Below, one piece after another: positions 23,004 to 30,085 of a stretch of DNA of 64,000 bases (positions are counted from its first letter, which is position 1; each line of letters begins with the position of its first letter). The notes below the pieces were generated by a model. That model had not been told where the DNA came from and searched no databases. It saw only the letters and a list, made by a program, of their open reading frames with translations. This DNA comes from a virus: IMG/VR virus record IMGVR_UViG_3300033149_006617, positions 3,756-67,755 of that record; one strand, given 5' to 3'. The translations under genes were made by a program, and so were the position numbers.

Positions 23004-23639
23004 ATGGCAATCCAAGTGTATCAGGAGGATATAGCCCGTGTGGCCGAAAAAGTAATTACCGCCCGCCAATCAGGGGCTAGGAGCTATACTATTGGAGAAA
23101 CAGTATTCAGGCTGGATGTTGGTGGCTATTGCGCACGTTTTGTAAGGCAATGCCATGAGGCGGCGATGGGCCTGCATCCCTTCAGATGGGAATTTTGTGC
23201 CCCTGACGCCATTGAAATGGAAGAGAATCTAAGGTTGGCCCGCCATCAAGTAGAAAACGCTCAGCGCGGGGACATCATTGCATTCAATCGCAATAGCGGC
23301 CCACACGGGCATATTGGCATTTATTTGGGAAACGGCAAGGTTGCCGAGAATACCATTTCAGGCAGGAGGGGTAATCCACGCAAGCCAGGGACTAAAATTT
23401 CCCGCATAGATGAAATAGGCCGGTGGAGAATAACCGGCTTCTACCGCCCGTTACCCAATGGAGACGAAATAAGGCTTATTAATTTGGATTCGCCAGGTTA
23501 TACCCAGGTCATAGAATGTAATCTATCCATAGAACAGGGAACCGCAAGGGCTGATGTCCGTCCCTTGTTAGAGGCACTAGGTTATGAGGTGATCCCCCAT
23601 ATAATTGACCAGAGGAAGATTTATGTGAGGAAAATTTAG
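23004..23639 (+). CDS. Endolysin, NlpC/P60-CHAP type, with copper-amine-oxidase-N-like C-terminal domain
   Basis: GYCARFV catalytic Cys, RGDII.F, HGHIGIYLGNG; C-terminal 'DVRPLLEALGYEV'. Confidence 0.75.
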   Translation: MAIQVYQEDIARVAEKVITARQSGARSYTIGETVFRLDVGGYCARFVRQCHEAAMGLHPFRWEFCAPDAIEMEENLRLARHQVENAQRGDIIAFNRNSGPHGHIGIYLGNGKVAENTISGRRGNPRKPGTKISRIDEIGRWRITGFYRPLPNGDEIRLINLDSPGYTQVIECNLSIEQGTARADVRPLLEALGYEVIPHIIDQRKIYVRKI

Positions 23640-26011
23640 CCTTTCTTTTGGCGTTTTTCTTCGCCCCAAGCCGATGTTACGGCCATGTCAATCGGCATAG
23701 AAATATGGATGAATGGCATGGGGGCTTCCATCATTTCCTTGATGATTTCCTTGGCTAGCGGTACGCTCTCTTCCAGCACCTCAAAACACAATTCATCGTG
23801 TGTCTGGAGCACTACATGAGCGTCCAACCCTTGGGCCGCGAGGGCGTACTCACACCGTAATTGGGCCACAAATACCAAATCCGACGCTCCACCCTGAATA
23901 GGGGTATTGCATGCCTCGCGCTTAGCCTTTTCTCTGCGCCATTTATCGGGGCTATTTGCACCAGGTATATGTCTTATCCTGCCAAGCGGATTTCGGACTA
24001 TTCCAGTCCTCACCGCTGTCTTCCATGTATCATTCTGCCAGCGCCTTACCATAGGAAATCTACCGAGGAAATTCTCTATGAGAGCCTCCGCTTCACCAAC
24101 TGTAACCCCGATGTTTTTTGCTAGACCATAAGGGGTCTCACCATATAGGATCCCGAAAACAACTGCCTTGGCCCTTGTCCGGTCACTTGGTGTTTGCTTT
24201 TCCTTTGGTATGCCGAAAACGGCTTTGCACATTTCTGCATGTATATCTTCCTGCCGTATGCTGGCAAGCATAGCAGGGTCGTTTGCTACCGCTGCCTGTA
24301 CTCGTACTTCTGCTTGCTTGAAGTCAGCCTCAATAAACTTGTAGCCCTCCCTGGGGACGAACATCTTACGCTCTTCTTTGGGGACATTTTGGAGATTAGG
24401 ATTACTGGAACTAAGCCTTCCTGTAACCGTTCCACCAACATCCTCATCGCGCTCGGCTTCCGCCCGCGCTAGATGGTAGTTGGTATGGATTATATCCTCG
24501 CCGATGTAACGTTGCACGTAAGTGCTGTTGGACTTTACAATGCTTCTATATTCCAATATGAGGTCTATTATGGGATGTTCTAATGCTTTTAATGTACTCT
24601 CATCGGTACTCCACCCTGTTTTAGTAGCCTTGACTGGCTGGAGCCCCAATTCATCAAAAAGTATTTCCTGTAATTGTTTTGGGGAACCGATATTAAATTC
24701 TCTTCCTGCCATAATGTAGATTTCTTTCTTTAGTTCCTCCAGCCGCGCTTTTTGTTGAACGTTGGTCTCCTCAACTGTACTTGTATCTATTCGCACTCCC
24801 CTAAGTTCAACGTTTATAAGGCTCCTTTGCATTGGCATCATTATACAACGCATGAATTTGTCTAACTTCAATTGCTTTAGCTTCTTACTAAACACTTTAT
24901 AAAGCCTTATAGTAGCATCAGCATCTCTCGCCGCATAAGGCTCCAATATTTTCGGTGGAATGGAGCCGAAGTTCCTCTTCTCCTCTGGGATTTTTTTGTT
25001 GTTTTTAATGTGGCTAAACAGATCGTCAACTTCCCTCGACCATGCTGGCATCCTAGCATACCTCACCGCCGCATGCTTGAGGGAATGAGATTCGAGTTCA
25101 TTAATAAGGTGATGCGCAAGCAATGTATCCCAATAGTATCCATTTATCTTCATGCCTTTGTTGCGGAGCACCTTTACATCAAATGCACCAAAATGTGCCA
25201 CTTTCCTCCATTTGTAGGAGCCAAATAATTCTAATAGCCTCTTAGCAATCTCCAACTTGTCATGCTCCCCCCACACCGATTTAAATTCGCGCATAATAGG
25301 GAGCACATATCCTCTCCCAGGTTTATCCGAAAACGAAAAGCAAATAACATCTGTATCATAAGGATTAGTGCTGGTAGTCTCCAGATCAAATGACCAGATT
25401 TTGGAGCCATAGAGCACATTCCACAAGTCGTCCAACTTATCGTGGGTATCAATGATTATTACGTTGGTGTCAACTGTTTCTACTTTTTTGCCGACCAAAA
25501 AATCGCGCAAAGAACGGATACCCACCATAAACTCCGGTATATTACCTGGATTATGTAGGCAAGCAGATGGATGAATTATGGGGAGGAGCATACAGTCAAA
25601 TTCTTCGTTGTATTCCCATATCGCATTGGCCTTATTTATACCGGTCCTGCCGGTCAATGTTTGATATGCAACGGCACCGAAGGCCACAATTGCCTTGCGT
25701 GGATACTTTCTGATGACCTTCTCCAGGTATTCCCTGCACGCATTGATGGTAGCAGTTGTAGCCTTGTAATTTTCGCCGCCAGGAAAGCACCTCGTAGCAT
25801 TCGTAACCAAAAATGACTTCCTATCAAGTCCTACAGATGCTAATGCCTTATCCAGAAACTTACCGGCAGGACCTGTAAAAACCCTGCCGGTCTCGTTTTC
25901 CGTTTCTCCAGGCTCCTGGCCTACCATCACAATATCAGCCTTGGCGGGGCCAGTGTCCTTTACCTTTCCCTGTAGCCCCAAATGATTCAATGGGCAGTCA
26001 TTACATCCCAT
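23636..26011 (-). CDS. polA: Family A DNA polymerase with 3'-5' exonuclease and N-terminal family-4 uracil-DNA-glycosylase-like domain
   Basis: CxxC, VGQEPG, HPS (UDG4); FDLETT, YAARDA (exo); TGRLSSSNPNLQN, ADFKQAEVR, RAKAVVFGILYG, THDEL. Confidence 0.93.
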   Translation of the reverse strand: MGCNDCPLNHLGLQGKVKDTGPAKADIVMVGQEPGETENETGRVFTGPAGKFLDKALASVGLDRKSFLVTNATRCFPGGENYKATTATINACREYLEKVIRKYPRKAIVAFGAVAYQTLTGRTGINKANAIWEYNEEFDCMLLPIIHPSACLHNPGNIPEFMVGIRSLRDFLVGKKVETVDTNVIIIDTHDKLDDLWNVLYGSKIWSFDLETTSTNPYDTDVICFSFSDKPGRGYVLPIMREFKSVWGEHDKLEIAKRLLELFGSYKWRKVAHFGAFDVKVLRNKGMKINGYYWDTLLAHHLINELESHSLKHAAVRYARMPAWSREVDDLFSHIKNNKKIPEEKRNFGSIPPKILEPYAARDADATIRLYKVFSKKLKQLKLDKFMRCIMMPMQRSLINVELRGVRIDTSTVEETNVQQKARLEELKKEIYIMAGREFNIGSPKQLQEILFDELGLQPVKATKTGWSTDESTLKALEHPIIDLILEYRSIVKSNSTYVQRYIGEDIIHTNYHLARAEAERDEDVGGTVTGRLSSSNPNLQNVPKEERKMFVPREGYKFIEADFKQAEVRVQAAVANDPAMLASIRQEDIHAEMCKAVFGIPKEKQTPSDRTRAKAVVFGILYGETPYGLAKNIGVTVGEAEALIENFLGRFPMVRRWQNDTWKTAVRTGIVRNPLGRIRHIPGANSPDKWRREKAKREACNTPIQGGASDLVFVAQLRCEYALAAQGLDAHVVLQTHDELCFEVLEESVPLAKEIIKEMMEAPMPFIHISMPIDMAVTSAWGEEKRQKKG

Positions 26012-26130
26012 TAACGATTCCTACCTTTACGCCCACCTTTGGGCGGATTGCATCCTCCTCGGCCTCTATTGGCCCCTACGCCTCTTCCACTGCCGTCTTT
26101 CTTTGGAACGCCCTTTTTTGATTTGGCCAT
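26011..26130 (-). CDS. Small Gly/Lys/Arg-rich protein (39 aa, not in the ORF track)
   Basis: MAKSKKGVPKKDGSGRGVGANRGRGGC...; GGAGG SD; TAATG overlap with the polA start. Confidence 0.65.
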   Translation of the reverse strand: MAKSKKGVPKKDGSGRGVGANRGRGGCNPPKGGRKGRNR

Positions 26131-26136
26131 ACTCTA

Positions 26137-26472
26137 TCACCTCCCATCATTTAAGGCCCTCTCGATTGCTTGGATAATTTGCTCCTTAGATCGAGACCCC
26201 ACAATCATCTCGGCCACGTTGCCGCTCTTAAGAAGTAACAATGTCGGGAGGCTCCTAATACCAAAGCGTGTGGCTAGCCTTGGATTGTCATTTACATCTA
26301 CCTCCCCGACCCTAAGTCGCCCACTATATTCATTAGCGATAGCCTCTACGATAGGGGCAATTATTTTACATGGCTTACACCAATCCGCCCCAAAGTCCAA
26401 AAGCACCGGCTGTTTCGATTGAATAACCTCCGATTCAAAGTTATCAGTTGTAATCGTGATGATGTCAGCCAT
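26137..26472 (-). CDS. trxA: Thioredoxin
   Basis: PVLLDFGADWCKPCK, GIRSLPTLL. Confidence 0.93.
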   Translation of the reverse strand: MADIITITTDNFESEVIQSKQPVLLDFGADWCKPCKIIAPIVEAIANEYSGRLRVGEVDVNDNPRLATRFGIRSLPTLLLLKSGNVAEMIVGSRSKEQIIQAIERALNDGR

Positions 26473-26487
26473 TTACTTGCCCCCGTT

Positions 26488-28101
26488 TCAAGCCCGAATA
26501 AAATCAGAAATCAAATTTGGTGTAGCCATATCAAATCCCACCACGTCCAACATACCAGCATCGTTAGGATCAGCAATTGAAAATCCTGTGCTGGTCATAG
26601 CTACCACAATTAATTTAGCAGGGATGCCTGTCTCTCGGCGATATTTCTGCAATGCTTGGCAAGGATGAATGTCACCTGCCCATGTTTCATTATCGGTATA
26701 AATGACAAACGCATCAATCTCCAAGCCATCCTTGAGCGCGGACAGCATGGGCAAGGCACAATCAGTGCCACCCCACGGTATATCCTCAATTTGACGAATA
26801 ACATCATCAAGCCGTTGCCTGCTACTTATGCTAACCGGCACTAAGAGGGAATCCTCCCACCAATTAGAAGGCCCGCTAGCAAAAGCCGTCACAATAGAAT
26901 TAAGCTCCACCCGTTGAGTAACCAATGCCATAGCAGCAGATGCCCCCCTGGGGGTTAGGTTAGGAATACCACTAACACCCGCAGCCCCCATAGAGCCTGA
27001 TACATCCAATGCCAACATTATCCGTTTATTCGTAGGTTCTACATTACCAAATGCCATGTAGAATGCTCCATCAAGAGCATCTACAATAGACGCTATAGGT
27101 GCCCATCTCAATTTCCCACGAGCTCCCTGACCGGATTTATATGTAGTCAATGCCGCCAGCACGCCGATAGGATGCACCCGTGCTCTACGGAGTGCCGCTT
27201 CATCAGATACCTTTTCAATTACCTTTGACGTTACACTACTCAGTGGTTTGAGTGCCCCATTTGCCGTCATGCGCCCCAAATTGCGGATGAGCGCGGTGAG
27301 TGGCATATTGGGCACTAATGCTTGCCAAACATCCGGAGAGTTAATTACATCACCAGGTACCATCTCCCAAGTAACCCACGGATGGTTATTAATTATTCTT
27401 ATTGTTTCCTTGGGATTTCGCGCTTTCTGGAGAGCCTCGAATACTTTGATAGTTTCGGGTAGGTCCTCAGTGCTCTCGTGCTGAGTAACCCAATGGAACA
27501 ACGCATTTAATGCGGGATCAATTGCCTTCGGATGGGCTAATCTCAACAAATCCCTATGAGTCCAGCCATATCTTTGGCGATATTTGACTATTTGGTAGGC
27601 AAGTCTCTCAACTTCCTTATCAGTATACCATCGGGCTACTGCCCGTCTAAGGCTCCGCCCCCAGCCACGAAACGACTCTACTGCATCTGCAAATTGAAAG
27701 ATATGGGTTCCGATACGGCATACTTGTGGGAGCGCATCCAATGCCGCCTTCTTGGTCTTATCATCCCCCATACCTGCAGCCATCGCTAGCACAAAGATGG
27801 CAGCGTCATTTTTAGGTGCTCTGCCCTCCTCACTGATTTCAACGGTTCGATTAACTACTCGTTGCCCGTCTGCTTGTATGCACCGCAGGACCGCCTGGGC
27901 ATTATCCTTGGTGAATTCATGCTCACCCACATAGTAAGTACCACCCTCACTTCCCAGAATCAAAAAGCGGTCAAGTCGGACCCAATCATCAACCTCAAAT
28001 ACATACCCACCCGCATCGTTTACTACCTGAGACTTACCTGGGATCGGCTCTGATTGTGGGGTCTTTTGGGTTTGGAAGTGCTTTGCGTACCGCATGTTCA
28101 T
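26488..28101 (-). CDS. rsr: Ro60/Rsr TROVE-domain RNA-binding protein
   Basis: NDAGGYVF..DDW.RL.RFLILGSEGGTYY, KYRQR.GW.HRDLLRLAHP, ALIRNLG, vWA MIDAS LDVSGSM, GGTDC, YTDNETWAG, DVVGFD. Confidence 0.96.
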   Translation of the reverse strand: MNMRYAKHFQTQKTPQSEPIPGKSQVVNDAGGYVFEVDDWVRLDRFLILGSEGGTYYVGEHEFTKDNAQAVLRCIQADGQRVVNRTVEISEEGRAPKNDAAIFVLAMAAGMGDDKTKKAALDALPQVCRIGTHIFQFADAVESFRGWGRSLRRAVARWYTDKEVERLAYQIVKYRQRYGWTHRDLLRLAHPKAIDPALNALFHWVTQHESTEDLPETIKVFEALQKARNPKETIRIINNHPWVTWEMVPGDVINSPDVWQALVPNMPLTALIRNLGRMTANGALKPLSSVTSKVIEKVSDEAALRRARVHPIGVLAALTTYKSGQGARGKLRWAPIASIVDALDGAFYMAFGNVEPTNKRIMLALDVSGSMGAAGVSGIPNLTPRGASAAMALVTQRVELNSIVTAFASGPSNWWEDSLLVPVSISSRQRLDDVIRQIEDIPWGGTDCALPMLSALKDGLEIDAFVIYTDNETWAGDIHPCQALQKYRRETGIPAKLIVVAMTSTGFSIADPNDAGMLDVVGFDMATPNLISDFIRA

Positions 28102-28118
28102 CTCTCCTTAGATTTTAA

Positions 28119-28222
28119 TTCTGGGCAAGGGATGCGATGCGGAGTATTGCCCCCATATTGGGCTAGCAAGGCATATACCTTGCAGGAATCGAACCTGATA
28201 ACCACATCGCTCCGGCCCAGAA
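28119..28222 (-). ncRNA. Y RNA (YrlA-like) with tRNA-like T-arm, loop-closed acceptor stem and D-arm
   Basis: Minus strand: UUCUGGGC-CGGA-GCGAUGUGG-UUAU...CCGCAUCGC-AUCC-CUU-GCCCAGAA terminal stem enclosing CAGG-UUCGAUU-CCUG, CAAGG/CCUUG and UA-GCCC-AAUAUGG-GGGC; directly upstream of rsr. Confidence 0.88.
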
Positions 28223-28236
28223 AATTTAGTGCTTAA

Positions 28237-28363
28237 TGTCGGGCAAGGGATGTGGGGCGGAAATTCGCGCTCTACCATTGAGCTACTGGGGAGACCCCCA
28301 GACGGGACTCGAACCCGCAACCACGCCATTCCAAGTGGATAACCGCCCCACTCCGGCCCGACA
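28237..28363 (-). ncRNA. Y RNA containing a near-complete circularly permuted tRNA including an anticodon loop
   Basis: UGUCGGGC-CGGA-GUGGGGCGG-UUAU-CCA-CUUGGAA-UGGCG-UGGUU-GCGGG-UUCGAGU-CCCGU-CUGGGG-GUCU-CCCCAG-UA-GCUC-AAUGGUA-GAGC-G-CG-AAUUU-CCGCCCCAC-AUCC-CUU-GCCCGACA. Confidence 0.9.
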
Positions 28364-28371
28364 AACATAGG

Positions 28372-28442
28372 GTTCTGGATAAGTAAACGGGTAGCCGAGT
28401 GCTCTTTGTCCTAAAGATAACGGCTCCCCTCCGACCCAGAAC
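28372..28442 (-). ncRNA. Minimal Y RNA (Ro-binding stem, no tRNA-like domain)
   Basis: GUUCUGGGU-CGGA-GGGGAGCCG-UUAU-CUUU-AGGAC-AAAG-AGCACU-CGGCUACCC-GUUUA-CUU-AUCCAGAAC; same CGGAG...GUUAUC and CUU motifs as its two neighbours. Confidence 0.78.
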
Positions 28443-28464
28443 ACCAAAATTTCAATGCTATCGT

Positions 28465-28493
28465 AGTCTACACCAATTTGGGTGGTTTGTCAA
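28465..28493 (-). promoter_or_regulatory. Promoter for the Y RNA-rsr-trx-polA operon
   Basis: Minus strand TTGACA-17 nt-TAGACT. Confidence 0.75.
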
Positions 28494-28538
28494 CCCCTTT
28501 TACCAACTTTTTTCGGGGATTTTTTCGGGCTGTGGGGG

Positions 28539-28567
28539 TTGACTTTTGGGGTGGTGTGTGGTATACT
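28539..28567 (+). promoter_or_regulatory. Divergent promoter for the replication operon
   Basis: TTGACT-17 nt-TATACT with TG extension. Confidence 0.75.
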
Positions 28568-28630
28568 GTTTTCCCCAAAACCTTACCGGTGCGCTTGCTA
28601 TCGGCAATTACTAACCAAAAGGTGATGCAG

Positions 28631-30085
28631 ATGTATGCACAGGCAGTACAGGAACCCCCCCAACTAAGACCCCAAAGCACCACGTCCAAAGGATTCACCG
28701 CAGTGCCTTATGAATTTCCTCAGCACCTGATGACACAACTGACTCCGGTTGAACTGAAGGTATGCCTTCTGATTATTCGTGATAGCATTGGCCGCAATCG
28801 CGAATACACAAAAATCCGGCCAAAAGAAATACAAAATATATTAAATGAATACAGCATAGGCACCATATACAAAGCATTAGGAAGGCTAAAAAAATCCGGC
28901 ATCATAGAGAAGAAAGGAACAGGCTACAGACTATCACCATCAATAGTGCCTCCTGGCACAATTCCACTTCAATTCATAAAGGTCCCCGATTCATTCTTTG
29001 ATGTTCTGCACGAGTTCACTTACAGCGAGATAAGACTCCTGCTAAAAATATTCCAAATATTCGACAATGGCGAATACCGCCCGATGCCGATGCGCCGATT
29101 AGCAAAATATTGCAACACGGCTCTTGCCACGGTATGCGGGGCAATGATGCGGCTGAGGGAAAAGGGCATCATCTTTCCAGAAAATCCTGATAGATGCTCT
29201 ACAGAGCCTTTTAGATATTCTCGTCAGAATATTTATATTGCCCTCGCAACATATTGCAAATTACATCGGGAGAATACCATAATCAGGGAACTAAATAATT
29301 CAAATCAATCTGAAAACAATTTATATGAAAATAATTCAGGGTCATTTCAGTATTATGAATTTGGTACTGAGGCGAACGCACCTAGCACTCAGACGAACGC
29401 AATTTGGTACTCAGACGAACGCAATTTGGTACTGAGGCGAACGCACCTAGACGGAAATTCGGGCCAGGAAGCCCCGTCATTACTGGGCTCTTCAATATTT
29501 TGCAGTTTCCCCTTAAACAGTTCTTTTAAACAGCTTTTAAACACTAGTTCTCGCGCTTCGGAACCCTTTAGCGGATACGGCTCGCTTTCGGGTTCCTCGC
29601 GCAACTCAGCGCTTTGCGCTAACGACTTTGCTGAAGGGAAAATAAATATTGAAGGGAAGATAAATATTGAGGGAGGAATAAATATGTTGAACCCAAAGGT
29701 ATTCGTCTCAGATGAGAATAAAAAGAAAAGTGTTGTGCGCCCGCGCCAAAATAATAAAAATTCTTCTTGGCGCGAAAAGACACGTTATACTATGACCCCA
29801 GCCGACTGGCTGGATGCCTTCACTGATCTGGTGAAGGAAAAATACGGTAAGAATGTCCCACATTCCGACCGAGTGCAGGTCCCCCAGGTGAGGAGATTAT
29901 TGGCCGACCACGGCCCCGATTTGTTTGCGAAGGCGTTCAACTTCTATATTTTGAACTTCAAGGGTAAAAAATTGCGGGATAGAAGGGTCCCCATAGACGA
30001 GCAGACGAATGCTCCTTCCCTGCGGATTTTCTTGTCCGATTATTACTTCGGGCATATTTTGGAGGCCGCATGTGGTAATGATTAA
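28631..30085 (+). CDS. Replication initiator protein (lambda O-like, tandem winged helices)
   Basis: 'FTAVP...LT..ELKV.L.IIR..IG' repeated twice; internal iterons; start placed downstream of the promoter. Confidence 0.7.
   Translation: MYAQAVQEPPQLRPQSTTSKGFTAVPYEFPQHLMTQLTPVELKVCLLIIRDSIGRNREYTKIRPKEIQNILNEYSIGTIYKALGRLKKSGIIEKKGTGYRLSPSIVPPGTIPLQFIKVPDSFFDVLHEFTYSEIRLLLKIFQIFDNGEYRPMPMRRLAKYCNTALATVCGAMMRLREKGIIFPENPDRCSTEPFRYSRQNIYIALATYCKLHRENTIIRELNNSNQSENNLYENNSGSFQYYEFGTEANAPSTQTNAIWYSDERNLVLRRTHLDGNSGQEAPSLLGSSIFCSFPLNSSFKQLLNTSSRASEPFSGYGSLSGSSRNSALCANDFAEGKINIEGKINIEGGINMLNPKVFVSDENKKKSVVRPRQNNKNSSWREKTRYTMTPADWLDAFTDLVKEKYGKNVPHSDRVQVPQVRRLLADHGPDLFAKAFNFYILNFKGKKLRDRRVPIDEQTNAPSLRIFLSDYYFGHILEAACGND
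29358..29450 (+). repeat. Four 21-22 bp iterons (putative replication origin)
   Basis: AATTTGGTACT(GAGG/CAGA)CGAACGC units at 29358, 29401 and 29423 plus a variant at 29380; TTAAACA x3 follows at 29513-29543. Confidence 0.7.

Follow-up and report, generated by a model that had tools for sequence, protein, structure and literature searches.

How much of a tRNA can a Y RNA contain? This question is raised by an RNA, here called Y1, on the minus strand (28233–28364) of a 64,000-nucleotide stretch of DNA from an uncultivated phage (positions 3,756 to 67,755 of the IMG/VR record IMGVR_UViG_3300033149_006617; this whole stretch is hereafter the window), where it lies upstream of a gene for Ro60. 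Many published Y RNAs of the YrlA class have a fourth stem-loop, V, upstream of the T arm, which has been equated with the variable arm of a tRNA and whose loop begins with a conserved YUAY (Chen 2014, PMC4201824). Most YrlAs 'likely resemble circularly permuted tRNAs', and an origin from dimeric tRNA transcripts has been modeled for them (Wang 2018, 10.1101/312249). A preliminary description of Y1 proposed a complete permuted tRNA, with the Ro-binding stem grafted between nucleotides (nt) 28 and 29 of an otherwise full anticodon stem. We consider it probable, at roughly three chances in four, that Y1 is a YrlA-class Y RNA whose distal end is an entire tRNA in circularly permuted order, with the anticodon stem split into 3 + 2 base pairs (bp), and that the V hairpin is better read as an anticodon arm. 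Y1 is a new member of the YrlA family, and the arm and the idea of a permuted tRNA are already in print; the novelty appears to lie in taking V for a true anticodon arm, and possibly in a class of non-permuted relatives as well.

Anatomy of Y1

Read 5' to 3' on the minus strand, the first element of Y1 is the 5' strand of its Ro-binding stem (28343–28362), which pairs over 7 + 8 bp with 28238–28260. Within this strand, GCCGGAG (28357–28351) is a variant of the published GNCGAA(N)G in which G replaces the first A; both CCGGA and CCGAA are present among the 24 aligned relatives of our alignment A1, described below. The 5' linker of a three-way junction follows, UUAU (28339–28342), which corresponds to the conserved YUAY and whose TTA is invariant in A1. 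The anticodon-arm-like hairpin (28326–28338) then consists of CCA (nt 29–31, 28338–28336), the loop CUUGGAA (nt 32–38, 28335–28329) and UGG (nt 39–41, 28328–28326). Directly after it, nt 42–43 (CG, 28324–28325) pair with nt 27–28 at 28266–28267, and UGGUU (nt 44–48, 28319–28323) forms a variable loop with an A15:U48 Levitt pair. Next come the T arm, GCGGG-UUCGAGU-CCCGU (28302–28318), and the acceptor stem, CUGGGG/GUCU/CCCCAG (28286–28301), which has 6 bp, is closed by a tetraloop and carries neither free ends nor CCA. Positions 28266–28285 then hold U8 A9 (28285–28284), the D arm GCUC-AAUGGUA-GAGC (28283–28269), G26 (28268) and C27 G28 (28267–28266). The last elements (28238–28265) are a 3' linker, AAUUU (28265–28261), and the 3' strand of the Ro stem (28260–28238). 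The preliminary description had placed each of these elements correctly on the minus strand, and all of the proposed pairs (35/35 in a script check) were standard pairs.

Y1 has the features by which YrlAs are recognized. Its ends pair into a stem carrying the motif near the 5' end, in its variant form; a near-invariant T arm, a closed acceptor-like hairpin, UA and a near-invariant D arm are all present; and a Ro60/TROVE gene lies within 4 kb on the same strand, with 132 nt separating the end of Y1 (28233) from the start of the Ro60 open reading frame (ORF; 28101). Run with E-value thresholds, the Rfam YrlA model (RF02553) matched the native sequence at 28237–28360 on the minus strand (54.9 bits, E = 1.5e-11), in agreement with the preliminary assignment of Y1 to the Y RNAs. 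The Rfam tRNA model gave only a match bridging the D arm of Y1 and the T arm of a neighboring Y RNA, Y2 (18.5 bits), which was dismissed on account of its E-value (0.58) and non-complementary acceptor. Relative to the YrlA consensus Y1 has one big mismatch, 13 nt inserted after UUAU and ahead of the strand whose pairing partner follows the D arm; this insertion is the CCA-CUUGGAA-UGG hairpin of the preliminary description. The whole of Y1 outfolded 200/200 shuffles (z = -4.19), and it scored 120.6 bits with R1, the covariance model that we built from its relatives.

We then compared Y1 with tRNAs. A canonical tRNA has a 5'-to-3' cloverleaf, free ends, a 7-bp acceptor, a discriminator and CCA, and Y1 does not: its acceptor has 6 bp and is closed by GUCU. 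ARAGORN, used at default settings throughout, called 0 tRNA genes in the native window. A script was used to de-permute the RNAs, cutting them at the acceptor loop, removing the Ro stem and joining nt 28 to nt 29. In this form Y1 has four arms, a 7-nt loop with U33 and a purine at 37, a variable loop of the 4–5-nt kind and the elbow positions 8-14, 15-48 and 18-19 (in Y1 the elbow features are U8 A9, the D-loop GG, the T-loop UUCGA and A15:U48), and ARAGORN called it as tRNA-Pro (tgg). The same treatment of 47 RNAs gave a tRNA call in 39/47 de-permuted sequences vs 3/47 in native order. That Y1 cannot be charged, as first suggested, is plausible given the 6-bp, tetraloop-closed acceptor, as RNase P cleavage of YrlA has been linked to a 7-bp acceptor stem (Chen 2014, PMC4201824).

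Comparative evidence for a split anticodon stem

A megablast search of the locus against 50,697 phage records returned no match. By protein, relatives of its Ro60 were found in 358 phage records, mainly of actinophages, and the closest named one is the Ro-like protein of Gordonia phage BearBQ (52% identity). We gathered 55 viral and 80 bacterial loci of Ro60 relatives, the latter being the best 80 of 183, and picked candidate Y RNAs solely by a T-arm motif, a D-arm motif, a UUA anchor and a 19–21-nt insert (n = 37). The alignment A1 was made with MAFFT from the 24/37 candidates with shorter acceptor hairpins, and pairing played no part in this choice.

The split stem proposed in the preliminary description was supported by covariation in A1. 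The pairs of the 3-bp hairpin were formed in 91.4% of alignment cells, with double changes in 2/3 pairs. For the two junction pairs the figure was 91.7%, and they covaried richly: AU 8, GC 7, CG 6, GU 1 and other 2 at 41:116 (alignment columns), and GC 15, CG 5, AU 1, UA 1 and other 2 at 42:115. For the rest of the RNA, the T and D stems were 100% paired, the outer 4 acceptor pairs 97.9% paired (double changes in 4/4) and the two Ro-binding stems 95.7% and 80.7% paired, again with double changes. The full structure scored better on A1 than on 500/500 column shuffles and better than every slid register. With no structure supplied, RNAalifold predicted from A1 the 3-bp hairpin with a 7-column loop; the isolated 2-bp junction was not predicted. 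Together with the Levitt pair and the ARAGORN calls on de-permuted RNA, the covariation and the RNAalifold prediction support the split 5-bp stem, the 7-nt anticodon-like loop and a Ro stem that branches off between nt 28 and nt 29.

R1, built from A1, was then used to collect a wider set, giving 132 matches in the window and viral loci and 177 in bacterial loci (150 aligned). Filtering the rows for a 17-nt T arm, a 14–20-nt D arm, a UUA junction and a length of at least 115 nt left 90 distinct YrlA-like RNAs. The canonical layout (3 bp, 7-nt loop, 2 junction pairs and 4–5-nt variable loop) was present with 5/5 pairs in 34/90 and with 4/5 pairs in 13 more, and an unbroken 5-bp stem without the hairpin, the Salmonella type, was found in 18/90 and with 4/5 pairs in 4 more; the remaining 21 had other arrangements. 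Shuffled inserts reached 5/5 pairs in 1.5% of cases (145-RNA set). When loop lengths of 3–10 were permitted, the mode was 7, and the loop kept a C-U...A-A frame, which is that of an anticodon loop. In the 34 canonical relatives we found C32 in 27, U33 in 30, three variable bases, A37 in 26 (G in 7) and A38 in 26 (C in 7); the loop of Y1 is one base off the commonest relative loop, CUUGUAA. Nucleotides 34–36 formed 19 different triplets in the same 34 RNAs. The UGG, proline-type anticodon of the preliminary description agrees with the ARAGORN call, but given this spread of triplets its proline identity looks incidental.

Anticodon arm or variable arm

The hairpin of Y1 could be an accessory stem-loop of the variable-arm kind, without the geometry of an anticodon arm, with the Ro stem standing for the anticodon stem. 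This is how V is read in print (PMC4201824), and in the crystal structure of Salmonella YrlA the anticodon-stem position is taken by the stem that runs to the Ro module (10.1101/312249); moreover, conservation is lower in the hairpin than in the D and T arms. A variable arm, however, belongs between nt 44/45 and nt 48, and here the two nucleotides covarying with nt 27–28 come only after the hairpin. What follows these two is a complete variable loop of its own: the 4–5 nt that separate the T stem from the junction pairs, often AGGUC, behave as a whole class I variable loop, and its last base keeps the 15:48 Levitt pair in 23/24 sequences of A1 (G:C 16, A:U 7 including the window, A:C 1). Since the Levitt base closes a separate variable loop, the hairpin sits 5' of nt 42–43, at the site of nt 29–41, and not between nt 44 and nt 48; being there, it does not qualify as the stem-loop between nt 44/45 and nt 48 that defines a class II variable arm. 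The peak of loop length at 7 and the C-U...A-A frame also speak for an anticodon arm, as does ARAGORN, which took the hairpin as the anticodon arm in the 39 RNAs that it called. We therefore regard the variable-arm reading as quite unlikely.

Several observations weigh against the anticodon-arm reading. The YrlA score of Y1 is below the Rfam gathering score of 69, and no match was obtained over the window in gathering mode; this shortfall coincides with the 13-nt hairpin insertion. R1 was built with the hairpin included, so the sets gathered with it are biased to hairpin-bearing RNAs, some bacterial relatives have 6-nt loops, and the bacterial matches in permuted register are partly mis-registered non-permuted units (e.g., L059:4238–4375). 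Because the triplet is not conserved, no anticodon-specific role is indicated. The hairpin stem is short, at 3 bp, and the isolated 15-nt hairpin is unstable. Folded as a single sequence, Y1 favors a CCAC/GUGG helix with a 10-nt loop (pair probability 0.62–0.64 vs at most 0.014 for the five proposed pairs), and forcing the five pairs costs 4.2 kcal/mol (-62.2 vs -66.4). The anticodon-like arm might accordingly exist in the relatives and be absent from Y1 itself, where CCAC/GUGG, the minimum-energy fold, would form. We consider this very unlikely and set the helix aside on comparative grounds: it is only 66.3% paired in the 24 homologues, its third pair (30:43) is open in 15 of them, and it would use up nt 43–46, including nt 44, the partner of nt 26. 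Energy models do not count tRNA tertiary contacts and coaxial stacking, and all five canonical pairs are kept in the window sequence.

That Y1 is a permuted-gene precursor which matures into a decoding tRNA-Pro, as in some algae and archaea, is extremely improbable. Transcripts of permuted algal and archaeal tRNA genes are spliced and ligated into working tRNAs. In the permuted tRNA genes of red algae and of an archaeon, as in Y1, the 3' half precedes the 5' half and a loop at first joins the two acceptor strands. Y1 has all four arms, and ARAGORN accepts its de-permuted form. Processing has been raised as a possibility for some YrlAs (Wang 2018, 10.1101/312249). The ends of Y1, in contrast, pair into a stem for Ro60, and there is no sign of maturation, although no search was made for a bulge-helix-bulge motif. 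Its acceptor has 6 bp and neither discriminator nor CCA, nt 37 is A beside G36, and one relative has the stop-codon triplet UUA; in addition, no bacterial enzyme for the splicing and ligation that would be required is reported (Wang 2018, 10.1101/312249). Transfer-messenger RNA and the 3' tRNA-like structure of TYMV (turnip yellow mosaic virus) share with Y1 an L-shaped tRNA mimicry outside decoding; they have free CCA ends and are charged, whereas the acceptor of Y1 is closed (10.1101/312249).

A further possibility is that the arm lures or senses anticodon nucleases of the host or tRNA-targeting defense toxins, an idea of the preliminary description under which a Ro60-bound mimic soaks up or reports cleavage. 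Conservation of the loop frame alongside variation of nt 34–36 is compatible with it, and so is a group of 19 near-identical YrlAs (11 distinct; L140–L180) that share one Ro-stem 5' strand and in which changes cluster in the anticodon-like loop (CUUGUAA 11, CUUCUAA 5, AUUGUAA 1 and an 8-nt version 3) and the acceptor hairpin, with the T arm, D stem, variable loop and junction pairs unchanged. Plain relaxed constraint on three loop bases predicts the same pattern, and to judge from these sequences the loop changes would fit relaxed constraint or an arms race equally. Many anticodon nucleases require modified bases, which counts against a decoy. In favor of a decoy or sensor, tRNAs cleaved in the anticodon loop elicit a response of the rsr-yrlBA-rtcBA operon in Salmonella (PMC7790460, PMC10159003); in the window, however, a Pfam scan of 49 ORFs, which covered few of those under 150 amino acids, found no nuclease, RNA ligase or RtcB gene, nor any other RNA repair or tRNA-enzyme gene. 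On balance we think a decoy or sensor unlikely.

Reading V as an anticodon arm can be set beside the YrlAs already in print. One of the seven sequences in Fig. 1D of Chen 2014 (PMC4201824) is that of mycobacteriophage ET08, and the ET08 YrlA (L136:375–523; R1 score 98.6 bits) has a 3-bp stem, a 7-nt loop, an AG that pairs with CU after the D arm, and then AGGUC; the YrlA of BearBQ bears the same hairpin arm. The YrlAs of ET08 and Mycobacterium smegmatis are like Y1 in lying upstream of Ro60 and in having a GNCGRA Ro stem, YUAY, near-invariant T and D arms and a closed acceptor; they differ from it in loop sequence and 3' linker, and the arm bears the published label of variable arm. The M. smegmatis acceptor has 7 bp, is cut by RNase P and gains CCA (PMC4201824), whereas that of Y1 has 6 bp. 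The arm that the preliminary description took to be new is therefore present in published YrlAs as V, ET08 included, and the part of its claim that stands is the reading as an anticodon arm, which is not met there. Full-text literature searches found no paper that reads V in this way; some reviews lay outside their coverage, so the reading may be in print.

Salmonella YrlA shares with Y1 the overall plan, the T arm before the D arm and a conserved UA at the junction, and it 'lacks the anticodon loop', at exactly the place where Y1 has its 13-nt insertion; its equivalent of the anticodon stem continues into the Ro module with a kink of ~30 degrees at the UA (10.1101/312249). We infer that the UA at the kink of the Salmonella stem corresponds, in hairpin-bearing YrlAs, to the linker at which the hairpin branches off, and this would fit a loss of the hairpin in the Salmonella type. 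For Yrn1 of Deinococcus radiodurans a potential 5-bp 'anticodon arm' has been modeled, as in Y1, but Yrn1 has a 6-nt loop, a doubtful D arm and no variable arm; its arm lies between the D-like and T arms and its Ro stem is at the acceptor position, a topology other than that of Y1 (PMC4201824).

If V is an anticodon arm, the module amounts to a whole tRNA rather than a tRNA elbow, and proteins that gauge or read this arm join the candidate partners. In that case, the retention of an unbroken stretch of tRNA, running from nt 29 through the 3' end, also supports the published model of an origin from dimeric tRNAs. As a separate observation, the D loop of some hairpin-bearing YrlAs (L047:1326–1456, L026:864–1000 and L039:1483–1629) is long and of the GAGUGGCCUAAG type, resembling that of class II tRNAs; their variable loop is still short (4–5 nt), and one of them has the triplet UGA.

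Non-permuted relatives, possible function and the phage locus

Among the closest viral loci, several have the D arm ahead of the T arm. These units begin with a 7-nt acceptor 5' strand, UA, the D arm, nt 26–28, a Ro-type stem closed by a small loop and UUAY, and continue with the anticodon-like hairpin, nt 42–43, the variable loop, the T arm, a complementary 7-nt acceptor 3' strand and one base (e.g., L001:1659–1784, L002:1584–1712, L046:1719–1835 and L054:1786–1909; others include L058–L064, L077, L083 and L089–L116). An encoded CCA follows the acceptor in L001 and L002. We scanned the loci for this layout, demanding 7/7 acceptor pairs, a D arm, and the Ro motif and UUA within an insert of at most 100 nt, and found 53 units (50 distinct) in 45/135 loci, 10 viral and 35 bacterial, compared with a mean of 1.05 units per round in a control with the acceptor 3' strand shuffled. 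In a looser list, 7/58 candidates were ordinary tandem tRNAs (inserts of 137–142 nt), which led to the recount at 100 nt; with the insert removed, ARAGORN called a tRNA in 43/58 candidates of that looser list, these 7 tandem tRNAs included. When units were folded as single sequences, the layout was recovered for L046 and, in part, for L054 and L002, but the z-scores were weak (-1.2 to -2.5); the fold of L064 showed no excess over shuffles (z = +0.5). In the L059 array, inner Ro-stem complementarity, judged by eye, tracks the non-permuted units and not the permuted register. Y1 itself is unambiguously permuted, with 7 + 8 bp between its own ends and a tetraloop closing its acceptor.

The chimera of tRNA and Ro stem thus seems to exist in both circular permutations, with an identical graft site. 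We found no mention of the non-permuted form in the Y RNA literature examined, and these relatives would make up a second, possibly undescribed class of Ro60-linked tRNA-like RNAs. Going further, the Y RNAs of many phages and bacteria may be whole tRNAs with a Ro stem grafted between nt 28 and nt 29 in either permutation, the non-permuted form being cut by RNase P, CCA-tailed and even charged, and the loop being functionally read, with its triplet shaped by phage-host conflict over tRNA cleavage; this broader proposal is speculative, and we hold it as doubtful. If it is true, the non-permuted form would put Ro60 on a molecule that the tRNA machinery handles as a tRNA, and the loop might be read by a modification enzyme, a synthetase, an anticodon nuclease, an RtcB-type repair system or the ribosome. 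Separately, at L002:1507–1985 five Y RNA-type modules, one of them a non-permuted chimera, stand in a row upstream of one Ro60 gene (by eye).

For Y1, the arrangement of the locus would allow one transcript to carry Y0, Y1, Y2 and the Ro60 mRNA, with transcription presumably starting from a promoter-like site at 28493–28465 and Y1 probably being cut from the product; processing into the three Y RNAs would resemble that of M. smegmatis YrlA and YrlB (Chen 2014, PMC4201824). The paired 5' and 3' ends would form the Ro60-binding stem and be bound by the phage Ro60. In the predicted fold, nt 29–72 (anticodon hairpin, variable loop, T arm and acceptor 3' strand) come first, followed by the tetraloop and then nt 2–28. 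The 3-bp hairpin would be stacked coaxially on the 2 junction bp, because the strand passes from nt 41 to nt 42 without a linker, and the Ro stem would exit the three-way junction by way of the UUAU linker and the 5-nt linker.

By analogy with known Ro60 complexes, Y1 may tether or gate Ro60, with the tRNA-shaped end engaging a tRNA-binding factor of the host. Complexes of Ro60, Y RNA and PNPase are known from Deinococcus and Salmonella, and a Ro60-Yrl-PNPase complex from Thermus phage phiLo (PMC12135203), and the effector bound by the tRNA-like end of Y RNAs is called unknown in both Chen 2014 (PMC4201824) and Wang 2018 (10.1101/312249). The conserved C32-U33...A37-A38 frame around a free triplet suggests that this host factor, or a tRNA-modifying enzyme, recognizes how the anticodon loop is shaped rather than any one triplet, and it argues that selection acts on that shape and not on a codon-specific function.

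The record from which the window was taken is a 67,755-base IMG/VR uncultivated phage with a completeness estimate of 44, and the window encodes tail, replication and recombination genes. Between 28500 and 28100 its minus strand carries three Y RNAs in tandem, 5' of the Ro60 gene (26488–28101, minus strand; 537 amino acids; vWA_Ro60 E = 2.4e-60, TROVE E = 2e-47), whose product is the presumed protein partner of Y1. Y0 (28369–28442, minus strand), between the promoter-like site and Y1, is a small Y RNA with a Ro-type stem, UUAU and a short terminal hairpin and without the tRNA-like module (R1 25.5 bits, E = 9.3e-08 with filters off; minimum free energy -28.6 kcal/mol, z = -3.47, with 0/200 shuffles as good). 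Y2 (28115–28223, minus strand) is a reduced YrlA-like RNA in which a 4-bp T arm directly follows UUAUC and precedes a closed acceptor and a D arm, and which has no anticodon stem, hairpin or variable loop (YrlA 22.3 bits, E = 0.041; R1 44.3–44.7 bits; z = -5.90). Three grades of tRNA-like module thus stand side by side in one phage. For the window taken by itself, the outcome is that three Y RNA genes of an uncultivated phage, which had carried no annotation, can be annotated with good support.

The promoter candidate 5' of the Y RNA array and Ro60 (28465–28493, minus strand) is sigma-70-like (TTGACA, 17 nt, TAGACT) and matches at 10/12 positions; with 2 promoter-like sites in the region against a shuffle mean of 1.0, such sites are not enriched, and it is a candidate only. 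The divergent site (28539–28567, plus strand; TTGACT, 17 nt, TATACT with TG) faces a 535-amino-acid ORF (28478–30085, plus strand), for which we found only a weak match to a Crp-type helix-turn-helix, under the Pfam cut-off. Two further ORFs on the minus strand (28108–28368 and 28283–28447; 86 and 54 amino acids) overlap the Y RNAs and are probably not genes. Likewise, the annotation of hypothetical protein gp219 in phage ET08 (L136:476–649) overlaps its YrlA and a second Y RNA, and the ET08 and BearBQ annotations mark no RNA gene at the Y RNA sites. On the 3' side of Ro60, on the same strand (23636–26472, minus), lie a thioredoxin gene and a gene for a family A DNA polymerase with an N-terminal domain of the uracil-DNA-glycosylase superfamily, neighbors that are reminiscent of the T7 polymerase-thioredoxin pair.

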